Source of the DNA: an uncultured Candidatus Poseidoniales archaeon
Lineage (GTDB): Archaea > Thermoplasmatota > Poseidoniia > Poseidoniales > Thalassarchaeaceae
Length of the DNA stretch: 64,000 nucleotides
Direction of reading: 5' to 3'
Assembly: GCA_963934165.1 (NCBI GenBank)
Contig: CAWVXH010000001.1
Location: forward strand, 22,098-86,097
In this document: positions 33,218 to 61,279 of the stretch, piece by piece
How positions within the stretch are numbered: the first letter of the stretch is position 1
How the letters are laid out: each line of letters begins with the position of its first letter
Translations under genes and position numbers: made by a program
The notes under the pieces: generated by a model
What the model was told of the DNA's origin: nothing
Databases searched by the model: none
The model's input: only the letters and a program-made list of their open reading frames with translations

Positions 33218-33335
33218 TATCAATCACCATTAGGTCGAGCCTATAGGCTCGGCAACGCGGCCAAAATTATTCGTGTTATAGCCTTGCTGGCGAGAGAGAT
33301 AAAACCATTCGCCATAGTAATGCTTCTTCCTTGGC

Positions 33336-39814: not shown

Positions 39815-41434
39815 ATGACTAACAAATCGAGACTGGCGAAAATTCTCAGAGCACCATTTGAGCCAACAGGCGGCGAGGGAAAATTATGGGTGATGTTCTT
39901 CACGTCACTGCTTTTAGTTTCAGGAATGAATTTCTATGCGATTATCCGTGAACCTGACATGATTGAAATAGAGGAAATTCAAAATTTCCCACGAGAAACT
40001 GTGAAAGTTGAAGGGGTTTTAACCAGTTATGTAAGAGACCCATATGGTGAACAGGCAAATCGAATAGATTTACAGATTGCCTCACATGATGGTAATTCTG
40101 TAATTAAAGTCAGATGGAATGTTGACCTGACAGTTACTGTTCCTCCGATTGGTAGCATCGTAACAATAGAAGGAGAAGTGTCTGAATGGAATGGAAGAAT
40201 TTGGTTACAATCCAATGGTTATGGTGCGATTACGGCGAAAGAGCAAGTGATTCAATTTAGAGGAGAGACTCTTGTGCATGTCGCTCAAAATCCTCCAAAA
40301 TATGCAAACCAATCCCTTGAAATTGAAGGATATCTAAGTGAAGCTTTATCGCCGAACATAACCTATCAATCTCTCAGCCTAATGGATAATCCAGCTTATG
40401 GAAATTCAGACCACCTCCTCTACATGCAAGTAGAAGGCCGTCTCGAACCAGAATTGGGCACTATCGAAGCTGGCAGTCATGTCATCGTTTCAGGATGGCT
40501 ACAATATGATGAGAGATCATTGAGATGGCGTCTGATTGCTCAGGCGACATCCGTTGAGGTTCTAAATTATGCAGACCCTGTGAAAATCAAGTGGGATGTA
40601 GAACCATATACACTAACTTATGATGTTGGAAAAATGGTCATTATCGATGGTACCGTATCATTTGATGGAACGAATTGGTGGTTACTCGGCCCGGCCCCTA
40701 CCGATAGATTGTGCCTTCTTGCCTCCCCTGAGGATGTTTCGAATAATATCGATGGAATTTCAGACGAATGGACAGGGCGACTTGTTTGGGCAACCGATGA
40801 AGCGGTAATTTGCCTTGATCGAGGCCAACAACCCGAATTCGGCAATCCTCATGGTCAAATTGGTGAAGATGCAATAAACATGCTTGATGTCGCTCAAAAT
40901 CCATTTGGTTTTGTAAATCAAAATCATACCTTTGAAGGATGGATTACAGATCCTATTTCACCAGATTATGATAAGGGCTATGTTGGCGATGGTCCTGATT
41001 ATTACTCACGAGATACTAAATTACGGATACAATTAATCGGCGAACACGTCGAATGGATCGAAGCGGGTCAATTAATTCGATTCAACGCGACAGTTATCTG
41101 GTCCGAATCAGAGGGCCGGGTTATCTTAGATGCTCGTTCATGGACCTTAGGTGACACTCCTGAACCCACCGCCTTGAATTGGGGGGACGGGTATGATTCA
41201 TGGCGTTGGGAAGTTGGAAAATTAGTCAGCATCACCGGCGAAGCAGTGATAGATGAGGATGGAAACCAATGGGTCAATCGTTCTGGTTCTATTGAACAAA
41301 TATGCTTACTTGGAGACGGAACAGAACCCAACCAACAGGCAAATGCAGGTGAGCCTTTGACTTGGATTGGCAGATTGATAATGTCAGAGGTACCACTTGC
41401 AAATACTATTTATTTCTGCTTAGATGTACGCTGA
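39815..41434 (+). CDS. Membrane-anchored extracellular protein built from internally duplicated OB-fold-like modules
   Basis: N-terminal anchor 'LWVMFFTSLLLVSGMNFYAII'. The repeated module pair can be seen by eye: 'YDVGKMVIIDGTVSFDGTNWWLLG..RLCLL..WTGRLVW..VICLD' versus 'WEVGKLVSITGEAVIDEDGNQWVN..QICLL..WIGRLIM..YFCLD'. Each is preceded by a 'VEG/IEG/FEG...V.GW' barrel-like unit. Confidence 0.55.
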   Translation: MTNKSRLAKILRAPFEPTGGEGKLWVMFFTSLLLVSGMNFYAIIREPDMIEIEEIQNFPRETVKVEGVLTSYVRDPYGEQANRIDLQIASHDGNSVIKVRWNVDLTVTVPPIGSIVTIEGEVSEWNGRIWLQSNGYGAITAKEQVIQFRGETLVHVAQNPPKYANQSLEIEGYLSEALSPNITYQSLSLMDNPAYGNSDHLLYMQVEGRLEPELGTIEAGSHVIVSGWLQYDERSLRWRLIAQATSVEVLNYADPVKIKWDVEPYTLTYDVGKMVIIDGTVSFDGTNWWLLGPAPTDRLCLLASPEDVSNNIDGISDEWTGRLVWATDEAVICLDRGQQPEFGNPHGQIGEDAINMLDVAQNPFGFVNQNHTFEGWITDPISPDYDKGYVGDGPDYYSRDTKLRIQLIGEHVEWIEAGQLIRFNATVIWSESEGRVILDARSWTLGDTPEPTALNWGDGYDSWRWEVGKLVSITGEAVIDEDGNQWVNRSGSIEQICLLGDGTEPNQQANAGEPLTWIGRLIMSEVPLANTIYFCLDVR

Positions 41435-41443
41435 GGTGATTTC

Positions 41444-43096
41444 ATGGACCCTTTTTTCGTAGACTTCGGATGGTTAATCGCCTCTTTCGTCATCGGAGTA
41501 TTCCTTGGCTGTTTAACTGGTTTAATTCCCGGTTTCCACGTGAATAACGTCGCATTGATTGCACTTTCATTATCCCCCATCGCAGTAGGTCTAGGAATTC
41601 CTCTCGATGCAGTCGCAGGAATAATTGTCGCAACTGGAACCGTTCATACTTTCCTGAATTATATCCCTAGTGCGCTGATCGGCGCGCCAGATGATAATAT
41701 GGCGTTAGCACTTTTACCAGGCCACAGAATGCTGGTTTCAGGCCAGGCAGCCCAGGGAGTTGCTTACTCAGCCCGAGGCTCTCAAATGGGCATGATGATG
41801 TCTATTCCATTGCTAATTGTTGCTCGTCTATTATTCGGTAAAGAGCCAGGATTGGGTTTGTATGAAGCAAGCCGTGAAGTCTTACCTTGGTTGCTTTTAT
41901 TCATTTCAATATTCTTAATCGCAACAGAGACGACTCGATTACCTTGGCCAGTTTGGGTACAAAAAATGACCAAAAATTTGAGATGGAAACTACCGAAAAA
42001 ATTCGAACTATCGGTCCCTTTGGGTAAAAGCAGGATCTATCGAAGTTGGGAATACCTCGATTTCACATTTGGCTCAAGTTCTAGAATGGCTGGAATTCTC
42101 GCCGCTACTGCCTTCTTTTGCTTGTCTGGATTTTACGGCTGGGCTGTATTCGAGTTACCGGGTAGATCACCTATTGGAATGCCTTCTGCAACCCTCTTGT
42201 TCCCGGGACTTGCAGGCCTTTTCGGAATCGCAAACCTCATCGATATCTATGTTACGACATCAGAGATTCCACCACAAGAACCGAATTGGGAGATGCCGAA
42301 GATGCGTCCGCTTGCAGTTCCAACATTTCTATCGGCTATCGTATCTTCAGTAATGGCAATATTACCTGGAATGACTGCTGCTCAAGCCACCGTCGTGGTA
42401 ATGAGTATGCGAAATTTCTGGGGTCGATTGACCGATCCCAATTATGTTCCAGCAGATTTTGAACATGGGACTCAGGACTTCCCGAAAATAAATTCTGGCT
42501 CAATTTACGAGGGATTAGACGATTTATCTGATGAAGAAGCTGCATTATTTTCTGCAGCACTTGAAGAAGCAGGGGGTACTTCAGAGGAAGATTTTGCAAG
42601 TAGGAGCCAGCAACAGGATTTGGAAATTATTGCAATTCTGTCCTCCGTTAATACAGCGGTAACAGTAATGGTTCTCGGATTTCTATACATGGTAGGAAGA
42701 CCACGTTCCGGAGCTGCCCTCGCTCTGAACATGATGTACCCAATCGACCTTTGGAACGGCATCAGTCCTCCATCTGATTTTATTCGTCTTCTCGGAATAA
42801 CGATAGGTGCTGGTTTATTTGCAGTTCCAGTAATGATTCGAGTTGGGAAAGGAATGTTACGAGTTCATGAAATGGTTCCATTGCGAACATTAGTTGGTGC
42901 AGTCACACTCCTCGTTACAGTACTGGTTTGGTTATCGACAGGTTGGATAGGAGTTGGAGTTCTAATGATCGGTACTCAACTCGGATTGATGCCACCCCGA
43001 ATTGGTATACGAAGAAGTCATGCGATGGGAATCATTCTCGTGCCGATAATGCTCTACACTTTTGCTCAAGAATTCGATGGCTTCGGATTTATTTGA
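41444..43096 (+). CDS. Polytopic membrane protein, possibly TctA/DUF112 (COG1784)-like transporter subunit
   Basis: More than 10 hydrophobic segments. The N-terminal 'GCLTGLIPGFHVNNVALIAL' resembles the G.PG motif of TctA-family proteins. There is an acidic cytoplasmic insert 'DLSDEEAALFSAALEEAGGTSEEDF'. The start lies 9 nt after the upstream stop. Confidence 0.4.
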   Translation: MDPFFVDFGWLIASFVIGVFLGCLTGLIPGFHVNNVALIALSLSPIAVGLGIPLDAVAGIIVATGTVHTFLNYIPSALIGAPDDNMALALLPGHRMLVSGQAAQGVAYSARGSQMGMMMSIPLLIVARLLFGKEPGLGLYEASREVLPWLLLFISIFLIATETTRLPWPVWVQKMTKNLRWKLPKKFELSVPLGKSRIYRSWEYLDFTFGSSSRMAGILAATAFFCLSGFYGWAVFELPGRSPIGMPSATLLFPGLAGLFGIANLIDIYVTTSEIPPQEPNWEMPKMRPLAVPTFLSAIVSSVMAILPGMTAAQATVVVMSMRNFWGRLTDPNYVPADFEHGTQDFPKINSGSIYEGLDDLSDEEAALFSAALEEAGGTSEEDFASRSQQQDLEIIAILSSVNTAVTVMVLGFLYMVGRPRSGAALALNMMYPIDLWNGISPPSDFIRLLGITIGAGLFAVPVMIRVGKGMLRVHEMVPLRTLVGAVTLLVTVLVWLSTGWIGVGVLMIGTQLGLMPPRIGIRRSHAMGIILVPIMLYTFAQEFDGFGFI

Positions 43097-43172
43097 ATAT
43101 TTCAAGTGAAATCGCCTGCTAACAGTAACTGGAACGCTTATGTCAGGAAACCGTTCGTAGCCATATAGAGCA

Positions 43173-45899
43173 GTGGATACCGTGAATGGAAATATGAATG
43201 GAAAAAATAAAATGATACCAGCAATTTTTGTCGTTGTTGGAATGTTACTGATGATTGTCAATGCGGTGATTTTGACATCGATTGTTGATGGAATAGTCGC
43301 GGATACTGTCGCGGGAGCAATCGCAGATGCTCGCGATAACCTTGAAGATTGGGAAGGTGACGATAGTTGGATGAATTCAACAGATGAGAGAGCATATTAT
43401 GCATATAATCTTGCCAATATTGATGCAATCAATTCCGGCGAAACAGATGCGCCTGAATTTGAATTGATTGGCCCTGCAATCTACACAGTTACAACCCATC
43501 GGGAAGTTCTTGCTTTTGATGAAGATGCTGGAGAAATGACATATTCAGAATACGATGTATTCGAATGGTGTGAAATTTGTACTCACGATGGAAAGATATC
43601 GGTATCAGGAGAAACTGAACTCACCAATGTCAATATCCTATATAACACTCAGAAAGTCGCTGGCCTATCAACTGGGATTACGTATGGTGAAATTTTCGCA
43701 AAAGCTGGGTTTTCCAACGCGATGATAGCTAACGATTTACAAAACCGTGCACCAAGCATTTGGTCGGCTGCTGAAATCAATATGATGGTGGATGGAGTAG
43801 CAGCACAACTGGTGCAAGCAGGATATGACGAAGCCACGGCTTCAGCAATGGCTCCGGTCGCATACCTTAACGCAGCTTATGCAAATTGGAATGCTTCAGC
43901 AGGAGGAGCGAGTCCTATGGATCCAGATTTCACTGAAGTTGCAAATTATATTCTCTATGATGCAGTAGACCCTTCAACTGGTGATTGTATCGCATTAACA
44001 TGTGAAATCGGACCAATGTTAGCTGCTGGAATCGGTGAGCCGGCTGACGAAACTACTGCAGTCCGTGCAGCACTTTACGGATATTCAGACCGTCTCGACA
44101 CCACCCTCATCGACTGGACTGTTTACGCATTGGCTGGAATAACTTTCCAATCTAATGGAGGAGGTGCAGATTTAGAAAGTGCAGAAAATCTTCGTGAAAG
44201 ATTACGAACTGCAACCGACCCTAATTTAAATCAGGACTCAAATAATAATGGAATTCCATACGATGATGGAATGGATATTACAAATCCAGACACCTTGAAT
44301 TATTTATTATTCGGAATCAATGAAGATACTGGATTAGGAGCTGGCTTATTGACTGAGACTGATTTCAATGGCATTCCACTACACGGTGTCGCACTTCTAT
44401 TATTGGGAGCACAAAGTGATGCATTCGGAACGATGTTAGAATACAACATCAATCTTGCTCAAGTACTCGCACTTGCCGATTATGCTGGAGGATGGATTGG
44501 CATGGTTGGAACAATGACTGAATTTGAAGCGATTTTAATCGGTGGGCAAGGCACGATCAATGCTGACCTTTGGTGGCAACTTTCATTCGGTTCAGTCGAA
44601 CCTCTTGAGGGAGGATACCTATCTATTGGATTGAATAGAGCAGATCATGCAGGAGATGCTGACTTAACAATTGAAAAGGTTAGAGAAATTCTCTATGATG
44701 GCCCATTTGCACTGACCGGTAATTTTGCTATTACTTTCATGTATAGTGAATTATCTGGAAAGACACTACCAACCGGGGCAGATGGAATTCCGGTGAGTGG
44801 TGGAGAGCAGATCGATTGGACTGATGAATTAGTTGCAGGTATGTATGGAATCGATACCGAAGCAGCAGCAGCACTTCGATCATGGGTGAAGGATTTAATG
44901 TTCGATCAAGTAATCGGGGCATTGTTAGGTTTCCAATATGGAACATCACCTTATACAACTCAATCACTCAATAACTGGCTCTATGGTTGGAGAGATATCG
45001 CAGTTGCAGATACGCTTGGCGATATCAACGACATGAATCTCGGTTGGGTTAGTTTGGAAACAAACATGACCTACTATGGATCAGATGGTGTTAGCACAGG
45101 AGATTATTCAGTTTACAAGATGAGCACGGGAAGCGGTCCAGACGGTCTCGCTAGTGTCGAGCATAGAATTGCTGAAGGATACATCAGTGGAGAAACTGGC
45201 GAAATTTATGACATGAGTGAATATTTGCCTTGGAGGTCTCCGGCTGCTGAAGAAGAAAAATATGGGTTATTGACTGATCATGTAGGTAATGCAAATACAA
45301 TCCTCAATGGAACCATAGGTGGCATTGGAGATGCTGATGAATCATTCAAAGTAAATTTAGTTGGTTATGCTATAGCGGACAGTATCGTTGGAGACAATGT
45401 GGTCTACAAGGGAATCCCCATGGTAGAGCATACGGTAAATCTCGACCCTTCGACGCACCAAATTCAAGCAAAATTACTCGCAACAGGAACAATCCTTGAT
45501 GTAGTGCCGGGTGGATTACCAATTTACTTCGGCTCGACAGTTGACCTGAAAGTAGAACCGGTTACCAATGTAGTCATGTATGGAAAATCTGTTTCACGAT
45601 TCTACCTTGACCTGAGAGGAGCCGGGTCAATGAATCCAGACTTTGGCTCTGACTCATCAGATGTTCAACCGGTTTTTGAAATCCATACCTTTAGCGAAAT
45701 TAGTGATGAAGATGCGGCTTCCTTCAAAGAAGCCGTTAACGACAATATGGGTCTAACTTACTGGACCAATTTCGACTCTGGCGCAGATGCAAAGTATATC
45801 GATTATGTAGCGGCTTCAATCTATATTATCAGTATAGTAATGATGGCGTTCGGTTCCAGGAAATTTATGGAATCTCATTCTAACAATAAAGAGGAATAA
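43173..45899 (+). CDS. 908-aa ectodomain protein with N- and C-terminal TM anchors; both ends resemble the CD36/LIMP-2/SR-B family
   Basis: TM helices 'IPAIFVVVGMLLMIVNAVILTSIV' and 'YVAASIYIISIVMMAF'. 'YYAYNLANIDAINSGETDAPEFELIGPAIYTV..VLAFDEDAGEMTYSEYDVFEW' parallels the CD36-family N-terminal consensus (F.F.V.NP.EV..GE.P...E.GPY.Y...V.F...N.TVSY). C-terminal 'YKGIPMVEH', 'GLPIYFGS' and 'VDLKVEPVTNVVMYGKSVSRFYLDL' parallel 'LKGIPVYRF', 'PV[FY][IL]S.PHF' and 'LDIEP.TG..L...KRLQ.NL'. GTG start; ATGs 21 and 39 nt downstream are possible. Confidence 0.5.
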   Translation: MDTVNGNMNGKNKMIPAIFVVVGMLLMIVNAVILTSIVDGIVADTVAGAIADARDNLEDWEGDDSWMNSTDERAYYAYNLANIDAINSGETDAPEFELIGPAIYTVTTHREVLAFDEDAGEMTYSEYDVFEWCEICTHDGKISVSGETELTNVNILYNTQKVAGLSTGITYGEIFAKAGFSNAMIANDLQNRAPSIWSAAEINMMVDGVAAQLVQAGYDEATASAMAPVAYLNAAYANWNASAGGASPMDPDFTEVANYILYDAVDPSTGDCIALTCEIGPMLAAGIGEPADETTAVRAALYGYSDRLDTTLIDWTVYALAGITFQSNGGGADLESAENLRERLRTATDPNLNQDSNNNGIPYDDGMDITNPDTLNYLLFGINEDTGLGAGLLTETDFNGIPLHGVALLLLGAQSDAFGTMLEYNINLAQVLALADYAGGWIGMVGTMTEFEAILIGGQGTINADLWWQLSFGSVEPLEGGYLSIGLNRADHAGDADLTIEKVREILYDGPFALTGNFAITFMYSELSGKTLPTGADGIPVSGGEQIDWTDELVAGMYGIDTEAAAALRSWVKDLMFDQVIGALLGFQYGTSPYTTQSLNNWLYGWRDIAVADTLGDINDMNLGWVSLETNMTYYGSDGVSTGDYSVYKMSTGSGPDGLASVEHRIAEGYISGETGEIYDMSEYLPWRSPAAEEEKYGLLTDHVGNANTILNGTIGGIGDADESFKVNLVGYAIADSIVGDNVVYKGIPMVEHTVNLDPSTHQIQAKLLATGTILDVVPGGLPIYFGSTVDLKVEPVTNVVMYGKSVSRFYLDLRGAGSMNPDFGSDSSDVQPVFEIHTFSEISDEDAASFKEAVNDNMGLTYWTNFDSGADAKYIDYVAASIYIISIVMMAFGSRKFMESHSNNKEE

Positions 45900-45972: not shown

Positions 45973-48522
45973 GTGATGCAGATGTGTCGAAAACGGGTTT
46001 TGGCTGGTCTGATTTGTGGTATTCTTATTTTTATGTCGATGAGCCCCTTGAGCGAGATTCAACTTGAAAAACAGACTCAGACAATCAATACATCCGATAG
46101 TGATGAACAAGTTGTGAAATTCACCCGAATTATGCCTTCAGCAGTACCCGAACGAGAAAATGATTGGTTTGAAATTACTAATTTTGGAAGTGAAGATGTC
46201 GAACTAGGGGATTGGACAATTGAGAGGATTCAATCCTCGAGTCCATGGATTTCAAATTTCAACGAATTTACTCTCATATCTGGCCAATCATTAGTTCTTA
46301 CAGAAAATCCAACGAATCTTCTAGAAGATGGTGGAATTGTTGCCCAAGATGGAAATATCGTTCTCAATAACATGCCTTGGTTGATAGATTCCGGTAGCGC
46401 ACTTCAGCTGAAAAATCCAGATGGAATCGTTGCTGATTCGATTGTTTTCGGGGGAGGCATTACAGAAACCGAAGGCTGGTCTGGGCCAGCAATATCCGTT
46501 CCAGGAGATGGCTCACCCGGCTTAATTCTGATTAGAGGAGATGGGTGCACTAGTGGTACCGATTCAGATAGTTCAGCGGACTGGGAAGAGCGGTGGATCA
46601 GAATCGGCGCATCGATTTTTTGTGATGGTGGCGATATTGCTGCACATCCAAATATGGCTGCATCAGCTTCAATTAGTCCAGGTACAGCACTTTCAGAACT
46701 ACTCGGTTGGCTAGAAAGTGCTGAACAATCAATTCACCTTAGTATCTACGAATCGATGAGTCCGGACCTGACAAATGCACTTTTAGAAGCGATTGAAAGA
46801 GGAGTTGAAGTGACCATTTTGTTGGAAGAAGGAATTTTGGATGATTCTGAAACAAAAGAAAATCAACGTGGACACGCACAAATATTGAGCCAATCTGGCG
46901 CTATTGTATATTGGATGATAACACCATCAGAAATCAGCGCACCATATGCGTTTATTCACAGCAAAGTAGCAGTAAAAGATAGTGAAAGCATTTGGATTTC
47001 TTCGGGGAATTGGAAAGATTCTAGTTTGCCTCCTGTTGGAGCATCAGGCAATAGAGAATGGTCATTATTCCTCGATTCCGAGCCAATGGCTCAATTAATA
47101 TTGTCTAGAATGGCATGGGATGAAAACTCGAATCACCTTCATATCGTAGAACATTCGTCTCAATATTCACCTGACGCTGGATGGTCACTCCCCTCTCCAA
47201 CAATCACTCCTGCGATCACTCCAACCCCAGATACTACCACTAGTTTTCGAACGAAATTATTGACCTGTCCCGACGACTGTGTAGACGGCCTCATCTCTGA
47301 GATAAATTCCGCTGATGAGTCAATTCGTATATCGGTTCAATATCTCGACATGGATTGGTATTGGGGATTTGGAGCCGAGAATCCAATACTTACTGCTCTA
47401 CATGATGCCGCTGTTCGCGGAGTCGAAGTTCGCATTCTTCTGAACGCGTATTATGCTGATGAGAGCGAAGATATTCACGATGCTGTAAATTTGTTCAATA
47501 CCGATTGGAATCAATCTCAAGGATTAGATATCACTGCCAGATTAATGTCGACAGCGGCTGATATTTGGAAATTACACAATAAAGGCATGCTTGTCGACGA
47601 TGATACAGTATTGGTTGGAAGCATGAATTGGGGTTCAAGTTCAATGTTGCGAAACCGCGAGATGAGTATCGTCGCGGAATCTTCAGAATTGGCTGCAATA
47701 TTTAGTAACTCATTCGAAATTGATTGGAATCGATTAGATGATTCAACAGATTCTGATGGTGATTTACTACCAGACTCATGGGAACTAATGTACGGCTTAG
47801 ACCGGCATAGTGCTGCGGTAATTGGCACGGCATTGAGCGAGCAATCATTGGACCCTGACAATGATGGATTGAATAATTTACAAGAATTTCAATTGGGGGG
47901 TGATCCGAGTGATGCTGATACAGATGGAGATTGTATTCTAGATGGAGAAGAGATTGAATTTGCTCAGAGCTTGTTACGAGCACCTTCAGTTGCAATGAAT
48001 TCGGCGGATGTCGATGAAAATGGAATACCTGATGGCGAGCAATATGGCTGTTCTGAAAATCCTGCCATCAATAATTCAGATAATGGAGATGATGGTAATG
48101 GAACCGAACCAAAAGAGCAGGATGAAGAGGAAGCCTTCGTCAATATTAGGGAAGATCCACTCTCTCAACCAGGAGCGAAGGTCTTACTCTACCTAATGAT
48201 GATTTCTGGGGCTTCTGTCGCAGTTGCTGCTGCGTCTATGTTTTATTCACCGAAAAGGCGAACAGAAGATGTCCTTTTCGATGATTCCGGTTACAAATTT
48301 GAAGACCCCTCATCATCGAAAGCGATTCTTAGTGGTACTAGTTTCGATGATGAACGAGAAGATGTACGCTCGCGTAAACAAGGAAAGGATGACGGGACGC
48401 ACGGAAAAATAAATCTCGATGGCTTTGGTTTTGAAAATGCAACTCGGGACGAGGTTCAATTCCTTTTAGACCAAGGTCATTCAATTGATGAGGTTCACAA
48501 AATTCTCGGAGATAATGAGTGA
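45973..48522 (+). CDS. Secreted, membrane-anchored phospholipase-D-superfamily protein (two HKD motifs) with N-terminal lamin-tail-like domain and thrombospondin-type-3-like repeats
   Basis: Signal 'VLAGLICGILIFMSMSPL'. LTD-like 'VKFTRIMPSAVPERENDWFEITNFGSEDVELGDWTIE'. HKD-1 is 'FIHSKVAVKDSESIWISSGNW' and HKD-2 is 'LHNKGMLVDDDTVLVGSMNWG'. Repeat motifs 'DSDGDLLPDSWELMYGLD', 'DPDNDGLNNLQEF' and 'DADTDGDCILDGEE'. TM helix 'VLLYLMMISGASVAVAAASMFY' plus a roughly 90-aa tail. Confidence 0.75.
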   Translation: MMQMCRKRVLAGLICGILIFMSMSPLSEIQLEKQTQTINTSDSDEQVVKFTRIMPSAVPERENDWFEITNFGSEDVELGDWTIERIQSSSPWISNFNEFTLISGQSLVLTENPTNLLEDGGIVAQDGNIVLNNMPWLIDSGSALQLKNPDGIVADSIVFGGGITETEGWSGPAISVPGDGSPGLILIRGDGCTSGTDSDSSADWEERWIRIGASIFCDGGDIAAHPNMAASASISPGTALSELLGWLESAEQSIHLSIYESMSPDLTNALLEAIERGVEVTILLEEGILDDSETKENQRGHAQILSQSGAIVYWMITPSEISAPYAFIHSKVAVKDSESIWISSGNWKDSSLPPVGASGNREWSLFLDSEPMAQLILSRMAWDENSNHLHIVEHSSQYSPDAGWSLPSPTITPAITPTPDTTTSFRTKLLTCPDDCVDGLISEINSADESIRISVQYLDMDWYWGFGAENPILTALHDAAVRGVEVRILLNAYYADESEDIHDAVNLFNTDWNQSQGLDITARLMSTAADIWKLHNKGMLVDDDTVLVGSMNWGSSSMLRNREMSIVAESSELAAIFSNSFEIDWNRLDDSTDSDGDLLPDSWELMYGLDRHSAAVIGTALSEQSLDPDNDGLNNLQEFQLGGDPSDADTDGDCILDGEEIEFAQSLLRAPSVAMNSADVDENGIPDGEQYGCSENPAINNSDNGDDGNGTEPKEQDEEEAFVNIREDPLSQPGAKVLLYLMMISGASVAVAAASMFYSPKRRTEDVLFDDSGYKFEDPSSSKAILSGTSFDDEREDVRSRKQGKDDGTHGKINLDGFGFENATRDEVQFLLDQGHSIDEVHKILGDNE

Positions 48523-49796
48523 TGGGTTCAATTTCTGAGTTCATTGACGAAGTTGTTTCGGACAAACTCGAAGATGAAGTCGTAATCGAATGGTTAAAGA
48601 AAATTTTTGCAGATGGACTCAACGAAGCTCAGACTATCGAATTAACAAAATCGATGCGTGATTCTGGAGAAAAGTTGGAATGGCCAGCTGAATGGGCAAA
48701 TCTTGTCGTCGACAAACATTCAACAGGTGGAGTTGGAGATAATGTTTCGATTCCACTCGCTCCTGCCCTCGCGGCTTGTGGACTCAAAGTCCCCATGATT
48801 TCTGGGCGAGGATTGGGTCATACTGGGGGAACTCTGGATAAATTGGAGAGCATCCCTGAATTCAGAGTCGATTTGTCGGTCGCGGAACTCAGTGAACAAA
48901 TCGAAAAAATCGGTGTAGCAATGGTCGGCCAGACCAATGATTTAGTGCCCGCCGATCGACGATTATACGCCCTGCGAGATGTAACAGGAACAATAGCTTC
49001 GGTTCCACTAATCACATCTTCAATCATATCAAAAAAGGCAGCTGAAGGCTTAACTGCTCTAGTTCTCGATGTAAAATTTGGGCGTGCTGCCTTCATGGTC
49101 GAGCGTGCTGAAGCTGCAAAACTCGCTCGCTCAATGAGCGCAGTCGCTAATGCACTGGGGATTCAAACAACTTCGATATTGTCTGATATGAATTCACCTT
49201 TAGGCTGCGCTGTAGGAAATGCTCTGGAAATTGTCGAATCAGTAGAAACACTATGTGGGAGAGGTCCGCTTGATTTGGAAGAATTAGTTTGTGTCCAAGG
49301 TGGGATTTTATTGTATTTGGCTGGAATTGCAACAGATGAAAATCATGGAGCTGTGATGATTCATGACAGCCTCAACGACGGCAGTGCTTTCAATAAATTC
49401 CTAGAAATGGTTGAATATCAAGGTGGAAACGCCGATGATTTCCTCACAGATACTACATTATACACTGCCTTAGGGTTATTAGATTCAAACCTGAATACAA
49501 CAGAAATAATTGCTGAGATTTCAGGGAACATTTGTGATATCGATGCGATGATAATTGCAGATATTTGTTTAAATCTAGGTAGCGGAAGGAATTCATTAGG
49601 GGGCGAAATCGATCATCGTGTTGGGATAATTCTCGAGAAGCAAATCGGCGAATTAATAGAAATTGGAGACCATTGGGCAACGATATACCATTCCGACGAA
49701 CTTGATGAGGAAAAAATTAAATCAATTCAATCATCTCTCCGAACAACTAATGATAACGTCGAGGTCGAATCACGAATCGTGGAGATGATAAGATGA
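48522..49796 (+). CDS. deoA: Thymidine / pyrimidine-nucleoside phosphorylase
   Basis: 'VDKHSTGGVGDNVS' and 'SGRGLGHTGGTLDKLESIPEF' are hallmark motifs. About 424 aa, so the bacterial-size enzyme rather than the longer archaeal AMP phosphorylase. The ATG overlaps the upstream TGA (TGATG); a GTG at 48519 is also possible. Confidence 0.88.
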   Translation: MGSISEFIDEVVSDKLEDEVVIEWLKKIFADGLNEAQTIELTKSMRDSGEKLEWPAEWANLVVDKHSTGGVGDNVSIPLAPALAACGLKVPMISGRGLGHTGGTLDKLESIPEFRVDLSVAELSEQIEKIGVAMVGQTNDLVPADRRLYALRDVTGTIASVPLITSSIISKKAAEGLTALVLDVKFGRAAFMVERAEAAKLARSMSAVANALGIQTTSILSDMNSPLGCAVGNALEIVESVETLCGRGPLDLEELVCVQGGILLYLAGIATDENHGAVMIHDSLNDGSAFNKFLEMVEYQGGNADDFLTDTTLYTALGLLDSNLNTTEIIAEISGNICDIDAMIIADICLNLGSGRNSLGGEIDHRVGIILEKQIGELIEIGDHWATIYHSDELDEEKIKSIQSSLRTTNDNVEVESRIVEMIR

Positions 49797-50866
49797 GATT
49801 GCTCTATATTGACAGGATTCGAGCTATAGCAATTCTTGCGATGGTTCAGGTCCATACCGCGGCCATTGTACCTCCTGAAGGAATTACCGTAGGAGACCCC
49901 ATTGCATTGGTTTCAGCTGCAATCGGAGGAATGGCGGCTCCATTATTTGTAACAATTTCAGGTTGGGGAATTTATAGAAGTGCGATATCTAGGGATACCA
50001 AATCGAATGATGATTTTAGAGCTTGGTCAAAATGGATTTTACCACGAATTACAATGTTGATTTTCTGCCAATTTTTAGTCAATTTTTTACTATCAACCGA
50101 TCGAGGAGGGCGTTTTGAATCATTTACTCCAGGAGTTCTAACATTACTGGCAATCGCTACGATAATCGCGCCAATAATAATCCATTTTTCTCATCAAACT
50201 CGCATTGTGCTATTGATTGTCCTTGCTGGCTCTCAATACTTCCTCGGAGATTTGGCTGGCACTGATTGGACCTGGTTTGAGCGTGTTTCCCAAGATAGCT
50301 TTACAGAATGGATTGAGCGTCTTCTATGGAATGGAACATATCCAGCACTACCATGGTTGGCTTACATTATGCTCGGCTCAATAATTTTCGAATTGGAGGG
50401 TGAGCCAAATACTAGAGACAAAATGATGTATGGCGGACTTGTAATCACTACAGCAACTCTGATTTATTCATTTACTTCAAATCAAATGTGGGCACTTCCA
50501 GAAGGAGAAGCAGTCCTAACGTTCTTCCCTGCCTCGACTACTTTCATCTTTGTTTCAGGTACTTTTGTTCTGATGACATTCAGGATATTAGAAGGTAGAG
50601 AAATCCAAGGAGGCCCCCCAACTGGTGGTCAAAAATTGGCAATTTTTGAACCGGCTGGGCGACTCTCGTTGACAATTTATGTCGCCCATTTCGCTGTACT
50701 CGGAATAGTTGCTAACATGATGTATGGTCAAGCTAGGCTCGATGTAATTCCTGCCTTCGCAGTAACCCTAATCCATACGGCGATTTGGATTCCACTATCG
50801 ATTTTACACGAACGTTTAATTTCAGATTATTCACTCGAAAAATTATTGCAGAAACTCAACTCGTAG
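49793..50866 (+). CDS. Polytopic membrane protein, acyltransferase-3 / DUF1624 (heparan-alpha-glucosaminide N-acetyltransferase-like) candidate
   Basis: The 'RLLYIDRIRAIAILAMVQVH' N-terminus is typical of this family (R..sLD.fRG.a...M...H). About 9-10 TM helices. ATGA overlap with the deoA stop. Confidence 0.4.
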   Translation: MRLLYIDRIRAIAILAMVQVHTAAIVPPEGITVGDPIALVSAAIGGMAAPLFVTISGWGIYRSAISRDTKSNDDFRAWSKWILPRITMLIFCQFLVNFLLSTDRGGRFESFTPGVLTLLAIATIIAPIIIHFSHQTRIVLLIVLAGSQYFLGDLAGTDWTWFERVSQDSFTEWIERLLWNGTYPALPWLAYIMLGSIIFELEGEPNTRDKMMYGGLVITTATLIYSFTSNQMWALPEGEAVLTFFPASTTFIFVSGTFVLMTFRILEGREIQGGPPTGGQKLAIFEPAGRLSLTIYVAHFAVLGIVANMMYGQARLDVIPAFAVTLIHTAIWIPLSILHERLISDYSLEKLLQKLNS

Positions 50867-53800
50867 TTGTCCAACTTACCGGTCCGAACCATTTGTCGCC
50901 TTCCTCATGTGAGGCTTTGATTCGCGCATAATAAGTCGTACTAGAACTAAGGCTCGTCAGTTCTTCATCATCCCATCCGACGACAGCATTACCCAAGCTT
51001 ACCGAATTACCCCAAGTGAGGGACTGATTACCCATATCCATGGTTCCATAATACAAAGTCAGTGTCGTGTTGGTACCATTATCATAAGTTTCCCAAATGA
51101 AATTTGTCGCTGAATTTGTTATATTCAACACGGATTCATTTCTAAGAATCGCATCGTAAACAAAATAATCACCCCTGAGAGGATCATTAACCCAAACCGG
51201 AAGATGGTCTAACGAATCGAACGTCGCCTGAGTAAGTGGGAATCCCCAGGCTGCAAAATATGGTGCTAAATTATAACCACTCGAATTAGAATTGTGTAGA
51301 ACCCAAGCATTGAATTCTTCATCGTCACCATTCGGAACTTCAGCTGTAGGGAGTGTGTAATAGACTACCAGTGCATTGGTTATTACACCCCACCCCCATT
51401 CTTCTTTAATTAACAAAAATGTGTCGAGTGCAATCCAAACTGACCAACTTGCGATATTGGAACCACCATCGAAATAATTTCTCATTCGAGTATCTCGAGC
51501 AACTGGGTCGACGGCGCTATGACCTGTAACACCAACTAATTCTTCCATCAAATATACGCTTGCGAAATTACATCCTGTCTCGGTCATACCTGGCAAAGTT
51601 GATGGCATCCACTGATGATTGTGACCCAATTCATGGAACATACCCCAATCGCCAGAACCGTTCATTTGTTCGAGGTCGATGACATCGACAACCGATAAAT
51701 CATGTGCCATGAATGGATAGCCAGAATGCATCCAACCAGCAGAAATCTGAGCGTCGAAAACCGCTCGCTCGACCCTTGGCCATGGTGAAAAACCGTAAAG
51801 TGAATGCTCCATTGATAGGGCTTGGTCCCACCATTGCATCAGAGCGCTGGCATTTTCTAAATCTCTGATTTGACCGCTGGGCACCGTCATAATGAAATTA
51901 TCACTTACCAATTCGGTCCATGGTGCCGGGTTATATCTTTCAGTGGTCTCCCATTGAAAATCACTAGTTACACCAAGAATGAACATAGGTGCGCGAACCG
52001 CACCAGAAATTTCAATATCGATTTCACCGAGTGTTGAGCCTGCAGGAATACCAACATAGATTGGGCCGCCGAAAGCATTTCCAATCTCAGATATAGGATC
52101 GGATATCGCCCACCAACGAGTAATCGAAGAATGTCGTTTGATGATGTCTTTGTTCCATAAACTGTCTGAATGTGCCCCAACCAATATGTAGATTCCAGAA
52201 TCGGCGAGTTCTTGTGATACCGTGACTGTAATCACCTCACCAGGCGCTGCATAAAGCCCCGTCGTCATTCTTATCGAAGACCTCGCACCAGAATATCCGA
52301 AATTACTTGGAAGGCCAGATTGAGTGCCATTGACAGTCACAGTGCGAGTAATCCTAGTCGCATTAGCTGGAACTTCACCTGGGAATTGAGTATGACTTGG
52401 GTGGACTGGTAATTCATCAGCAGGTAAATTTCTGACCAATCCTTCTTCTAACCGTAAAATAATATCTGCTACAGGGTCTACTCCCAAATCATGACCAGTA
52501 TTACTCCAAAGTGTACTATAAGGTATCACAGTCCACCCGGTTTGATTGACTAAATTTCGGAGTGGTGTCCAGAAATCTTCGAAATCCAGCGTTACCGCCC
52601 CGGTACAATCCGAAATTGATGAATAGGCGATTTCTGCTTCAGAAGAACTCAAAATCACACCATCAATACGATCAGCCCAAACAGCTTCAATCGCATTGTG
52701 AGGCGTGTATAATTCATCTGGAACCGTCTGGAAATTAACATCATTATAGCCCCAAGAGGTGGATACGAAAAGCCCACTGACCTTTGCAATTTTATTGCCA
52801 GGATAATTGTGGGCAGCATCCGAATTTGAATAGCTCCAATACCATGAATGACCCCCCATGACAATTCCACCACCATCCAGCATAAATTCTTCTAAATTAC
52901 GATTATCAGTGTCATCGTGGCCATTCCAAAATTCGTCAAGAAGACAATCGATTGCAGAAAGGTCGGCTGGCGTTACCGAGAGATGGACTGTGTAGCCAGC
53001 CGCTTGTAATTCGTCTTCATAATGGTCGAATCCTGCCCCATAAGCCAAGCCAACATCCGTTCCACCATCGCAAACCCAATCGATCGCACGCATAGTGAAA
53101 TCATGGGTTGTAGCAACCCATCCTTCATGACCATAACCGAGTATTTTCCCTTTGCCTACGTGGCTCGCCGAAACTATAGGATTTGAATTTTCATCCAATC
53201 CTATTGGGAATGACCATTCTCCAATCGGGAGTATCAGCGAAGGCCATCCACCGAAATCAGCCATGCCTATATCACGCAATAAATCATTTTGATCCGCACG
53301 AATATCATGTACAGTAATTTCGAGAAGTAAACCGACCGCCCCGCCAGTATTATTCGCCCAAATCGTATATTCATCCCAGGCAGTTCTCGTATCAGGCGTA
53401 CCGACAATCGAACCATTATCCAATAGGCTAAGCCCGGATGGCAATTGCGGTGAAACTTCCCAACTATCGATAGTTGGACCATCATTTGTTGCATAAATTC
53501 CAACCGATTCATTGGATTTCAAAACATAAATAGAATCGGCCCAAGAAATCAAATCAGGCGCCATGCTTGAAATTTTTATTCGAATAATTGTTGAAGTATA
53601 TCCTCCAGTATTATTTGCCCAAATCTGATGAGTACTCCAATCTTGGATAGAAGTTGCAACTCCACTTAATTGTCCATTAGTTGAATCAAAGAAAAATCCG
53701 TCGGGAAGATTAGGAGAAATATCCCAACTAGATGGAGTTCCGTCCATCCAAGAAGGTGATATATTGCCAATATCATCATCGATAGTAAGATCGAAATCAT

Positions 53801-54839
53801 AAGGCGTATACAACAGATTTACGGGTGCGATATCCTTGACTTCAATCAAAATTGATACTGTCAATTCCCCACCTGAATTCGATGCTGAAATGTAATGGGT
53901 TCGAATGGCATGTAATTCAGTAGTCGTCCCTCTGATTGAGCCATCTAATTGAACTAATTCTAACCCATTTGGAAGTGGAGGCTCAATTGACCAATGCAAG
54001 ATTTCACCACCCCCTACCATTGGAATTATCTGAACCGATTCACCGAGATTCAAATGGTAAGGATGGCCTGGATAATTCAATCCATTCGGTGCTTCATGCA
54101 ATGTAATTATACGAATGTCTACACTAATTGAACCGCCTAGATTTCCAGCGGTAATCGTATGATTTGAATCTCCTAAAACATATGCAATTCCAGAAATCCC
54201 ACCGGACTCATCCAAAGACAATCCTTCTGGAAGAGCGGGGTTGACAGCCCAAGTTTCAGCGAGACCGCCGTAAACATATGGCTCATCAAGGCCGCATTCG
54301 CGACCGAGTTTACACTGAATTTGATTCGTGGAATAAATGAGTGAATCAGGAGCAGCGGGAAGAATAAGAATATCTATAGTGGCAACTGAAGATCCGGCTG
54401 CATTGACTGCAATAATCGTGTAACGCAACTCCTCCGTAGCAATTGTAGGAATTCCCGAAATTTCACCACTAGACTGATCGAGAACTAATCCCGACGGTAA
54501 TCTAGGGTTTACCAACCAATTCTTTGGCCCATCTCCTTCAAAACTCGGCGTTAACGATTGCATCTGTAAACCGACGACCAATCGAAGAGAATCTACGCCA
54601 AAATTCAAATTTTTGGGCGTCAACATAAATCGGCATGCACTGCCTGTGAAAATCTGATTAAACGCGCAATCATCTTCTGTCACCCCTCCCGGTTCACAAT
54701 CCACATGAGTGGGATTTTGTTCACAATCAATTGGAGTGAGAGTCGGTTCTTCGCCCTCAAGAAAGCCTAAACATCCAGCGCTCAGCATCATAGCGACGAG
54801 GAAAATCGGGGCTAGCCGAACTGACTTCATAGAAGTCAA
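50856..54839 (-). CDS. 1,327-aa secreted lipoprotein-like protein: putative-Ig (He_PIG-like) repeats plus peptidase M60 (enhancin-like) zinc metalloprotease domain plus C-terminal Fn3-like module
   Basis: Lipobox-like 'VAMMLSAGCLGF'. There are five or more 'LP.GL.LD..SG.ISG.P' repeats. The zincin motif 'FHELGHNHQW', followed by 'LMEE', is encoded at 51621-51635. The accessory region 'IRMTTGLYAAPGEVITVTV' is typical of M60-like N-domains. Confidence 0.75.
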   Translation of the reverse strand: MTSMKSVRLAPIFLVAMMLSAGCLGFLEGEEPTLTPIDCEQNPTHVDCEPGGVTEDDCAFNQIFTGSACRFMLTPKNLNFGVDSLRLVVGLQMQSLTPSFEGDGPKNWLVNPRLPSGLVLDQSSGEISGIPTIATEELRYTIIAVNAAGSSVATIDILILPAAPDSLIYSTNQIQCKLGRECGLDEPYVYGGLAETWAVNPALPEGLSLDESGGISGIAYVLGDSNHTITAGNLGGSISVDIRIITLHEAPNGLNYPGHPYHLNLGESVQIIPMVGGGEILHWSIEPPLPNGLELVQLDGSIRGTTTELHAIRTHYISASNSGGELTVSILIEVKDIAPVNLLYTPYDFDLTIDDDIGNISPSWMDGTPSSWDISPNLPDGFFFDSTNGQLSGVATSIQDWSTHQIWANNTGGYTSTIIRIKISSMAPDLISWADSIYVLKSNESVGIYATNDGPTIDSWEVSPQLPSGLSLLDNGSIVGTPDTRTAWDEYTIWANNTGGAVGLLLEITVHDIRADQNDLLRDIGMADFGGWPSLILPIGEWSFPIGLDENSNPIVSASHVGKGKILGYGHEGWVATTHDFTMRAIDWVCDGGTDVGLAYGAGFDHYEDELQAAGYTVHLSVTPADLSAIDCLLDEFWNGHDDTDNRNLEEFMLDGGGIVMGGHSWYWSYSNSDAAHNYPGNKIAKVSGLFVSTSWGYNDVNFQTVPDELYTPHNAIEAVWADRIDGVILSSSEAEIAYSSISDCTGAVTLDFEDFWTPLRNLVNQTGWTVIPYSTLWSNTGHDLGVDPVADIILRLEEGLVRNLPADELPVHPSHTQFPGEVPANATRITRTVTVNGTQSGLPSNFGYSGARSSIRMTTGLYAAPGEVITVTVSQELADSGIYILVGAHSDSLWNKDIIKRHSSITRWWAISDPISEIGNAFGGPIYVGIPAGSTLGEIDIEISGAVRAPMFILGVTSDFQWETTERYNPAPWTELVSDNFIMTVPSGQIRDLENASALMQWWDQALSMEHSLYGFSPWPRVERAVFDAQISAGWMHSGYPFMAHDLSVVDVIDLEQMNGSGDWGMFHELGHNHQWMPSTLPGMTETGCNFASVYLMEELVGVTGHSAVDPVARDTRMRNYFDGGSNIASWSVWIALDTFLLIKEEWGWGVITNALVVYYTLPTAEVPNGDDEEFNAWVLHNSNSSGYNLAPYFAAWGFPLTQATFDSLDHLPVWVNDPLRGDYFVYDAILRNESVLNITNSATNFIWETYDNGTNTTLTLYYGTMDMGNQSLTWGNSVSLGNAVVGWDDEELTSLSSSTTYYARIKASHEEGDKWFGPVSWTTTS

Positions 54840-58419: not shown

Positions 58420-58490
58420 TCGCGCTGACAGCAGGACTCGAACCTGCGACCTGTGGATTAACAGTCCACTGCTCCGCCAACTATTCGGCC
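58420..58490 (-). pseudogene. Degenerate copy of tRNA-Asn(GUU) (pseudo-tRNA)
   Basis: Aligns along its whole length to the intact tRNA-Asn at 61204-61279. A 43-nt block is identical (58427-58469 = 61211-61253), covering the T arm, variable loop and anticodon arm. Outside it there are 6 substitutions. A 6-nt deletion removes positions 7-12 (5' strand of the D stem). Two acceptor-stem pairs are broken, and the 3' end is CGA instead of CCA. Confidence 0.8.
58427..58469. repeat. 43-nt perfect direct repeat, copy 1 (within the pseudo-tRNA-Asn)
   Basis: gacagcaggactcgaacctgcgacctgtggattaacagtccac, identical to 61211-61253. Confidence 0.95.
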
Positions 58491-58578
58491 CAGTTTGCGG
58501 TCTGAGCTCCGAGGCATCCCCCAGGAGAAAGGAGCAGGAGACAGTAGGAATCAAAGGTGCGTCTGTTGGCCTCGGCCT

Positions 58579-61203: not shown

Positions 61204-61279
61204 TGGCGCCGACAGCAGGACTCGAACCTGCGACCTGTGGATTAACAGTCCACCGCTCCACCAACTAAGCTATGTCGGC
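61204..61279 (-). tRNA. tRNA-Asn (GUU), genomically encoded CCA
   Basis: Reverse complement: GCCGACA TA GCTT AGTTGGTG GAGC G GTGGA CTGTTAA TCCAC AGGTC GCAGG TTCGAGT CCTGC TGTCGGC G CCA. 76 nt, all stems paired (one G-U in the D stem). Confidence 0.9.
61211..61253. repeat. 43-nt perfect direct repeat, copy 2 (within the intact tRNA-Asn)
   Basis: Identical to 58427-58469. Confidence 0.95.

Follow-up and report, generated by a model that had tools for sequence, protein, structure and literature searches.

A divergent CD36-type surface protein with an enlarged apex in archaea of Marine Group II

The stretch of DNA considered here, called the window, comprises 64,000 nucleotides of an uncultured Candidatus Poseidoniales archaeon (Thalassarchaeaceae; assembly GCA_963934165.1, contig CAWVXH010000001.1, positions 22,098 to 86,097 of the forward strand) and consists of archaeal DNA with a guanine plus cytosine (GC) content of about 42%. 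Its plus strand encodes a membrane protein that is almost certainly homologous to the eukaryotic CD36/LIMP-2/scavenger receptor class B (SR-B) family and shares its type of fold. Such a homology was the core of an original prediction made from the sequence letters, and three independent tests (Pfam, profile-profile comparison and the predicted fold) concur with it. The maximal open reading frame (ORF) in the ORF listing extends from 43173 to 45899 (+, stop codon included) and specifies 908 residues from a GTG codon. Every peptide quoted for it in the prediction occurs in the translation: YYAYNLANIDAINSGETDAPEFELIGPAIYTV starts at residue 75, YKGIPMVEH occupies residues 745-753, GLPIYFGS 781-788, VDLKVEPVTNVVMYGKSVSRFYLDL 790-814 and QPVFEIH 832-838. 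Translation probably starts at the ATG at 43194 (M8), which replaces the GTG of the ORF and yields a coding sequence of 901 residues (43194..45899, +), because the aligned methionine is the start in all homologues of the protein, the closest homologue (P0001, 95% identical) is also 901 residues long, and an ATATA box lies at 43163. This candidate archaeal TATA box (43163..43167, +), read from the sequence about 30 nt upstream of the ATG, suggests transcription from a promoter of the gene's own, into an mRNA with a short leader or none. No further copy of the gene was found in the window.

The protein is anchored at the cell surface as a hairpin, with two terminal helices, very short tails and an ectodomain of about 830 residues in which a CD36-type barrel bears a large apex domain, itself conserved. 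Kyte-Doolittle hydropathy (19-residue window) exceeds 1.5 at two places only, around residues 10-50 and 875-895, and the AlphaFold2 (AF2) model places its terminal helices at 14-52 and 873-901. The N-terminal transmembrane helix (residues ~15-38, IPAIFVVVGMLLMIVNAVILTSIV; 43215..43286, +) is preceded by a short lysine-bearing tail that is predicted to be cytoplasmic, while the C-terminal one (residues ~876-894; 45798..45854, +) is followed by the short tail SRKFMESHSNNKEE. Since these termini, 7-14 and 14 residues in length, carry lysine or arginine next to the helices, the intervening ~830 residues should face outward. The CD36 topology that had been proposed, with one transmembrane helix at each end of a large ectodomain, is thus borne out by hydropathy and model alike, both of which show exactly two hydrophobic helices. 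There are four cysteines in total, arranged as two local pairs (C133/C136 and C272/C277) that are invariant or nearly so across the family, and the C-terminal half is devoid of cysteine; the conserved pairs are compatible with an extracytoplasmic location. They lie elsewhere than the metazoan ectodomain disulfides, a pattern that the window protein lacks and that the 2023 family-wide study of Boohar et al., in the sections covered here, handles as a metazoan feature (PMC10715195); this pattern would thus not be a defining trait of the entire family.

At the sequence level, the likeness of the N-terminal ectodomain to CD36, first noticed by eye, is statistically real. The Pfam CD36 profile (PF01130) matches residues 22-189 of the window protein with E = 1.8e-9 and 37.0 bits, above the gathering score of 26.5, over profile positions 2-153 of 463, and the same profile is matched by 25 of 25 aligned homologues (best E = 9.9e-11). 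The N-terminal barrel segment (residues ~60-155; 43350..43637, +) is delimited by this match, by an alignment with LIMP-2 residues 7-85, by the AF2 model and by invariant columns; it contains strands 68-80, 96-116 and 121-132, the signature YYAYNLaN...ElIGPaiY and the conserved CxxC formed by C133/C136. More distant comparisons depend on the family profile: a single-sequence phmmer search of the PDB sequences gives no match, and the profile retrieves from all PDB sequences only LIMP-2/SCARB2 entries, each weakly (E = 0.13-0.37), through two collinear stretches on either side of a large gap. Here, FYFFNVTNP...VEEVGPYTY of LIMP-2 faces YFAYsLTN...FEKmGPFIY of the family from Marine Group II (MGII); in the local hhalign alignment described below, the C-terminal strand D-V-EP-l-TG faces D-L-K-V-EP-V-T.

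The second half of the homology emerges from profile-profile comparison. When the 29-sequence MGII family alignment is compared by hhalign with nine bona fide CD36 proteins of Asgard archaea and eukaryotes, residues 17-825 are aligned with a probability of 99.8 and E = 2.1e-28, at an identity of only ~10-19%. The C-terminal barrel segment alone (residues 589-869; 44937..45779, +), in which the AF2 model places strands between 594 and 842, matches positions 182-473 of P0260, a canonical CD36-type protein of 528 residues, with a probability of 99.4 and E = 1.2e-21. This segment holds the motifs NWLYGW, YKGIPMVEH, VDLKVEPVTNVVM and QPVFEIH. Of the four C-terminal pairings with CD36 in the original prediction, three stand in local hhalign alignments, where YKGIPMVEH is paired with FKQIELFRF, VDLKVEPVTNVVM with YLDVEPLTGIVM and QPVFEIH with LPVLFLE; the fourth, between GLPIYFGS and PVYISLPHF, fails because hhalign sets the PHF motif in a template-only insertion. 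A further pairing that had escaped notice joins NWLYGW to ELIWGY, a representative of the family motif ELLWGY. According to the part of the family-wide study covered here, the N- and C-terminal strand motifs M1, M2 and M17 are the most conserved regions across Eukarya (PMC10715195), and the strand regions aligned in the MGII protein may correspond to them.

Fold prediction leads to the same family. A first AF2 model, based on 25 close homologues, reached a mean predicted local distance difference test score (pLDDT) of 49.5 and was discarded; after addition of 13 divergent members, a second model attained a pLDDT of 78.8 and a predicted TM-score of 0.73. In this model, the segments ~60-155 and ~589-869 are predicted to build jointly the asymmetric beta-barrel of CD36. 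In a Foldseek comparison with the PDB, ranks 1-13 are all taken by CD36 (5LGD, E = 1.8e-6) or LIMP-2 entries, with E-values from 1.8e-6 to 1.4e-4, a probability of 1.00 and 317-347 aligned columns on targets of 316-400 residues (mostly ~390); lipid-bound LIMP-2 structures figure among the matches. The next match is the mycobacterial protein LmcA (7N3V; E = 3e-3, probability 0.99, target-normalised TM-score 0.28, root-mean-square deviation 16 Å), which fits a shared superfold, not membership of the LmcA family PF11271. Beyond CD36, LIMP-2 and LmcA, no PDB match falls below E = 0.3. These results bear on the idea that the resemblance to CD36 is a coincidence in a surface protein of other descent that merely has two transmembrane helices, an idea with which the restriction of PF01130 coverage to the N-terminal third and the empty phmmer search would agree. 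Given that all 25 homologues score above the Pfam threshold, that the hhalign match of the whole and that of the C-terminal half are collinear, and that Foldseek returns only CD36-type folds below E = 0.3, chance resemblance is effectively refuted.

The large gap between the two barrel segments corresponds to an apex insert (residues ~156-588; 43638..44936, +), as judged from the interval between the hhalign and HMMER stretches, the AF2 model and column entropy. An insert of about 450 residues had been proposed; it is indeed large, and measures ~430 residues. It stands in for ~50 canonical residues (positions 130-182 of P0260) that form the apex helix bundle. The insert is mostly helical in the model, with a pLDDT of ~85-93 over most of its length, and carries the conserved C272/C277 pair. 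With column entropies of 1.4-1.9 bits as compared with 1.5 bits for the barrel, the apex is as conserved as the barrel, and a sub-region of it is missing in only one divergent member (P0144). Part of the canonical helix bundle may be retained, as the last apex helix together with NWLYGW aligns with LIMP-2 residues 121-163 in the weak family-profile match. The insert has no match of its own in Pfam, in the PDB (none below E = 0.3 beyond the CD36 fold) or in BFVD (none below E = 0.29). Homology to the apex insert of Asgard CD36 proteins was considered and rejected (hhalign E = 0.11), as were internal repeats, the best of which is a short ‘YG-I/Y...A-L..W’ motif with a non-significant E of 0.03. 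The membrane-distal apex is thus seen, in the model, as a conserved and mostly helical domain of ~430 residues that is peculiar to Marine Group II. Eukaryotic SR-Bs sense their ligands through the apex, which has often been expanded in individual lineages; non-metazoan members are likewise variable at this place and many protists have an expanded apex, as reported in the portions of the family-wide study covered here (PMC10715195).

Relatives of the protein are encoded on at least 173 stretches of GTDB contigs (one genome per species), the best 80 of which are the basis of all locus counts given here. All of these 80 loci belong to Poseidoniales/Marine Group II, which confirms the archaeal host that had been assumed, and they span MGIIb as well as MGIIa (Poseidoniaceae, Poseidonia), i.e. 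both Poseidoniales families. The closest 120 database clusters are also from Marine Group II archaea (Thalassarchaeaceae), and family members are 30-55% identical to each other. When 1.84 billion representatives were searched exhaustively with HMMER, 177 matches were obtained, of which ~20 are full-length proteins of the MGII type; the next tier below them consists of true CD36 proteins. One Poseidoniales metagenome-assembled genome (CAZPJQ01) has two divergent CD36-type copies on different contigs (L057 and L071), 31-34% identical to the window protein, so paralogy exists within the MGII family.

In view of this distribution, it is highly improbable that the gene was recently acquired by horizontal transfer, with a marine eukaryote as donor, or that the assembly is contaminated by eukaryotic DNA. 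MGII archaea do co-occur with phytoplankton and protists, and an expanded apex is found in many protist SR-Bs, according to the text of PMC10715195 covered here. Against such an origin, the family is present in both Poseidoniales families within archaeal synteny and with the internal divergence just described, its identity to eukaryotic or Asgard CD36 is only ~10-19%, its profile distances to the Asgard, eukaryotic and short archaeal branches are roughly equal, and the GC content of the locus is the same as that of its surroundings. An ancient transfer, as distinct from a recent one, stays conceivable.

The gene is flanked upstream by that of a TctA-family membrane protein (41444..43096, +; PF01970, E = 2.6e-43; 24 of 80 loci) and downstream by that of a membrane-anchored protein of the phospholipase D (PLD) superfamily (45973..48522, +; identified by Pfam; 22 of 80 loci). 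The latter is a mosaic that begins with a hydrophobic segment and ends with a transmembrane helix, and that also carries a lamin-tail domain, two PLDc_2 (HKD) domains and Asp-rich TSP3-like repeats; judged from its sequence, it may be a phospholipase, a nuclease or another HKD enzyme. At some loci, 1.5-2.5 kb of extra DNA separates it from the CD36-type gene. The neighbour that recurs at most loci encodes a membrane protein of the Acyltransferase_3 type (49793..50866, +; PF01757; 31 of 80 loci). In the closest clade, a co-directional run comprises genes for an OB-fold protein, TctA, the CD36-type protein, PLD, a pyrimidine-nucleoside phosphorylase-like protein and Acyltransferase_3. This run is limited to that clade (22-24 of 80 loci). 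The sister clade is without TctA, PLD and phosphorylase, and there the acyltransferase gene directly adjoins the CD36-type gene; distant clades share no neighbours with the window and have instead genes for CoxL/S/M-type dehydrogenases, a TrmB-like regulator and others. The adjacent PLD-family gene invoked in the original prediction is therefore real, but its adjacency, confined as it is to the closest clade, amounts to local synteny and not to functional evidence. PLD and TctA were accordingly rejected as functional partners. The OB-fold gene of this run (39815-41434, +) encodes 539 residues with an N-terminal transmembrane segment and a sub-threshold OB-fold (tRNA_anti-codon) match; at the 24 loci of the closest clade it always accompanies the gene for TctA, and it may specify a TctA-associated extracytoplasmic partner.

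The window has further features of note. Two tRNA-Asn(GTT) genes, both on the minus strand (58422-58489, with a 6-nt deletion in the D-arm, and 61204-61279), flank a GC-rich segment of 2.7 kb (0.53-0.57 as compared with ~0.42 elsewhere). It holds a single ORF of 902 residues (58495-61203, +) with only a weak TSP3-repeat match, and has the appearance of DNA inserted or duplicated at a tRNA gene. A very large ORF of 3147 residues occupies 23780-33223 (-). An M60 (enhancin-like) peptidase of 1327 residues with a He_PIG Ig-like domain is encoded at 50856-54839 (-), in keeping with the protein- and glycoprotein-degrading lifestyle proposed for MGII.

Comparison with known CD36-type systems situates the protein more precisely. 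An SR-B is operationally defined, in the part of the family-wide study covered here, by a CD36 ectodomain with a transmembrane helix on either side (PMC10715195); judged by its sequence, the MGII protein answers to this definition while being far more divergent than any eukaryotic member. With the eukaryotic SR-Bs (CD36/SCARB3, LIMP-2/SCARB2 and SR-BI), above all non-metazoan members that have an expanded apex, it shares the hairpin topology with two terminal transmembrane helices and short tails, the asymmetric beta-barrel made from N- and C-terminal segments (predicted in the MGII case), and the motifs ‘F/Y-x-F/Y-N-x-T/aN ... E-x-GP-x-x-Y’, ‘W-L-x-G-W/Y’, ‘KGI’, ‘D-x-EP-x-T’ and ‘P-V/I-x-x-x-x’. 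Length variation likewise occurs at the membrane-distal apex, which is the site of lineage-specific expansions in eukaryotes, as stated in the portion of Boohar et al. (2023) covered here (PMC10715195). Differences lie in the low identity, in the helical apex of ~430 residues, in which no similarity to a eukaryotic or Asgard apex is detectable, and in the host, a single-membrane archaeon without an endolysosomal system.

By hhalign, the branch nearest to the MGII family is that of the Asgard CD36 proteins (E = 2.4e-20); the eukaryotes follow with E = 3e-16 and a rare group of short archaeal proteins with E = 7e-14, these values varying with alignment depth and not constituting a phylogeny. The Asgard proteins (Lokiarchaeota MBD3340896.1, Promethearchaeota MFX1408260.1) are also archaeal, have two transmembrane helices and 800-980 residues, and display a large apex expansion. 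They differ from the MGII protein in matching the whole PF01130 profile (E = 1e-63 to 1e-89, as against 37 bits), and homology between the two apex inserts is not demonstrable. Asgard and eukaryotic SR-Bs are very close to each other (hhalign E = 3e-59). In all, ~20 clusters of full-length CD36 proteins come from Asgard archaea (Lokiarchaeota/Promethearchaeota and Hermodarchaeota), some as tandem paralogues; examples are P0248 (MBD3340896.1), P0254 (MFX1408260.1), P0274 (Hermodarchaeota) and P0275-P0286, and their next-best matches are eukaryotes, namely Percolomonas and Dictyostelium. One such gene (L083, 10001-12511; GCA_016839555.1, contig JAEOUA010000010.1) lies on a contig of 504 kb whose genes are typical of archaea.

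The short archaeal CD36/PorA-like proteins P0226 and P0250 (522-534 residues) also have two transmembrane helices and are homologous to the MGII family (HMMER E = 7e-9), and their C-terminal motifs KGIDTL, DIEPLSG and IHEYGEIEDDDAEEF are similar to those of that family. They differ by having no apex insert and by matching PF01130 and PF11271 at once; PF11271 is matched by P0226, P0250 and P0229. The group is very rare, since 5.8 billion sequences contain just two clusters of it; it may form a link between the families CD36 and DUF3068. The gene of P0226 (L081, 10001-11569, +) has a paralogue of 554 residues (L081, 5701-7365, -) at a distance of 2.6 kb, on an 83-kb archaeal contig, adjoining the genes of the HMG-CoA synthase/thiolase/DUF35 trio, of Nre and of an archaeal pilin. 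In the case of mycobacterial/corynebacterial LmcA/PgfA (MSMEG_0317, Rv0227c; DUF3068 = PorA, PF11271; 7N3V), the protein is likewise prokaryotic and membrane-anchored, with an extracytoplasmic, elongated CD36-type beta-barrel enclosing cavities. It is distinguished by a length of ~300 residues, a single apex helix, a distribution that the literature restricts to Actinobacteria, a role in lipoglycan and mycomembrane trafficking, and a family profile (PF11271) that has no match to the window protein even at E <= 10.

What the MGII protein does can be approached by analogy with these systems. Palmitate is held in the cavity of CD36, and LIMP-2 binds lipids. LmcA/PgfA enclose cavities and have a role in lipid trafficking (PMC8972800, PMC9678360). 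The MGII protein probably handles, on balance, some lipid or other hydrophobic ligand. The ‘lipid-uptake ectodomain’ of the original prediction goes a step beyond, from homology to function, and we infer it in the same manner. The barrel would form a shielded hydrophobic conduit between the apex and the cell membrane's outer face. In its enlarged form, the apex would capture or dock the source of the ligand, for instance vesicles, particles rich in lipid, membranes of algal or detrital origin, or fatty acids in free form. From there, hydrophobic molecules would reach the membrane through the barrel and supply the pathway of fatty-acid degradation. Nutritional uptake would be the most economical reading, because fatty-acid degradation is encoded by all MGII genera, in which lipids and fatty acids are thought to be used for growth (PMC6461757); as a specific assignment it is tentative and falls somewhat short of probable. 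Taken as a whole, the best explanation, namely that a divergent archaeal CD36/SR-B member serves as an apex-to-membrane lipid conduit for uptake, is evenly poised between right and wrong.

Several observations weigh against this explanation. Pfam covers only the first third of the CD36 profile. The TM-scores of the 13 best structural matches, normalised to the target, are just 0.38-0.44 with root-mean-square deviations of 6-10 Å, so the barrel geometry is similar, not superimposable. In CD36, ligands enter at the apex, which includes Lys164, and precisely this part is replaced, hence ligand specificity is not transferable from CD36. No family-wide conserved neighbour pointing to lipid metabolism is found at the 80 loci. 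Finally, the bacterial relatives serve envelope biogenesis, not nutrition, and transport could run in either direction, import or export.

This last point opens the way to the same fold working in the opposite direction, as in LmcA/PgfA, with export of the cell's own lipids, lipid-linked glycans or anchors to the S-layer or to surface glycoconjugates. The Acyltransferase_3 family usually O-acylates surface glycans, and the recurrence of its gene near the CD36-type gene, with direct adjacency in one clade, gives a weak hint of envelope biogenesis, although this linkage is lost in distant clades. The order-wide presence of the CD36-type gene resembles that of a housekeeping gene. LmcA/PgfA (DUF3068) are also the only characterised prokaryotic relatives, acting in lipoglycan and mycolate trafficking (PMC8972800, PMC9678360), and LmcA directly follows CD36 and LIMP-2 in Foldseek. 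Its match is nevertheless far weaker (E = 3e-3 and a target-normalised TM-score of 0.28, as against E of ~1e-6 and 0.41), and PF11271 is not matched by the window protein. To our knowledge, no surface lipid of MGII archaea needs such a carrier. Export is thus an unlikely function.

The size of the apex raises another question, that of a protein acting mainly as an adhesin or receptor, in which the apex would bind particles, phytoplankton, another cell or a protein ligand while the barrel would be a mere stalk. The apices of CD36 and LIMP-2 bind, for example, thrombospondin, PfEMP1, glucocerebrosidase and enteroviruses. In the MGII protein, half of the ectodomain belongs to the apex, which is conserved like the barrel, and giant surface proteins are numerous in the window and its relatives (M60 peptidase, He_PIG, FG-GAP and lamin-tail-PLD proteins). 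Ligand sensing by the eukaryotic SR-B apex, often expanded by lineage, points the same way, as far as the text of PMC10715195 covered here goes. On the other hand, the barrel is under the same constraint as the apex, its signature motifs persist at 10-19% identity, beyond what a passive stalk would need, and no adhesion-type domain is detected in the apex in Pfam, the PDB or BFVD. A mainly adhesive or receptor role therefore seems unlikely, and the lipid conduit for uptake is preferred.

As regards novelty, the bare domain assignment is already in databases and is not a discovery: the NCBI annotation pipeline (PGAP) names some MGII members ‘CD36 family protein’, and the Pfam hits are precomputed. 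What is new is that the meaning of this label is recognised and the architecture described, namely an order-wide archaeal branch of CD36 with its own apex domain. A literature search found no paper that joins CD36 with Poseidoniales, MGII, Asgard or other archaeal taxa. The 2023 family-wide study is restricted to Eukarya and traces the family to the last eukaryotic common ancestor, prokaryotes being unmentioned in the part of its text covered here (PMC10715195). For bacteria, the crystal structure of the CD36-fold protein LmcA/PgfA (DUF3068) has been published (PMC8972800, PMC9678360). Together with the archaeal labels at NCBI and the Asgard homologues, this structure indicates that the description of the family as essentially eukaryotic, taken up in the original prediction, was overstated.

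The history of the family accordingly reaches beyond eukaryotes, with a homologue throughout an abundant order of ocean archaea and closer homologues in Asgard archaea. In animals, receptors of the CD36 type have a central part in the uptake of fat, the transport of cholesterol, phagocytosis and the entry of pathogens. The Asgard proteins bear on the origin of the eukaryotic family, and SR-B/CD36 would rank among the candidate Asgard-derived eukaryotic proteins. A broader scenario, speculative and on the doubtful side, is that the CD36/SR-B fold is an archaeal or pan-prokaryotic invention, of which MGII possesses an ancient order-wide branch with a ligand-capturing apex of ~430 residues for lipid entry, while the Asgard branch is ancestral to the eukaryotic receptors. 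If this were true, the MGII protein would be the first prokaryotic CD36-type receptor for nutritional lipid uptake, and SR-B would be added to the Asgard-derived eukaryotic signature proteins. In the literature covered here, no route is described by which MGII archaea take up lipids or fatty acids; the protein provides a concrete candidate for their acquisition by these uncultured organisms, and its replaced apex offers a natural experiment on how the apex of the CD36 fold sets ligand specificity.

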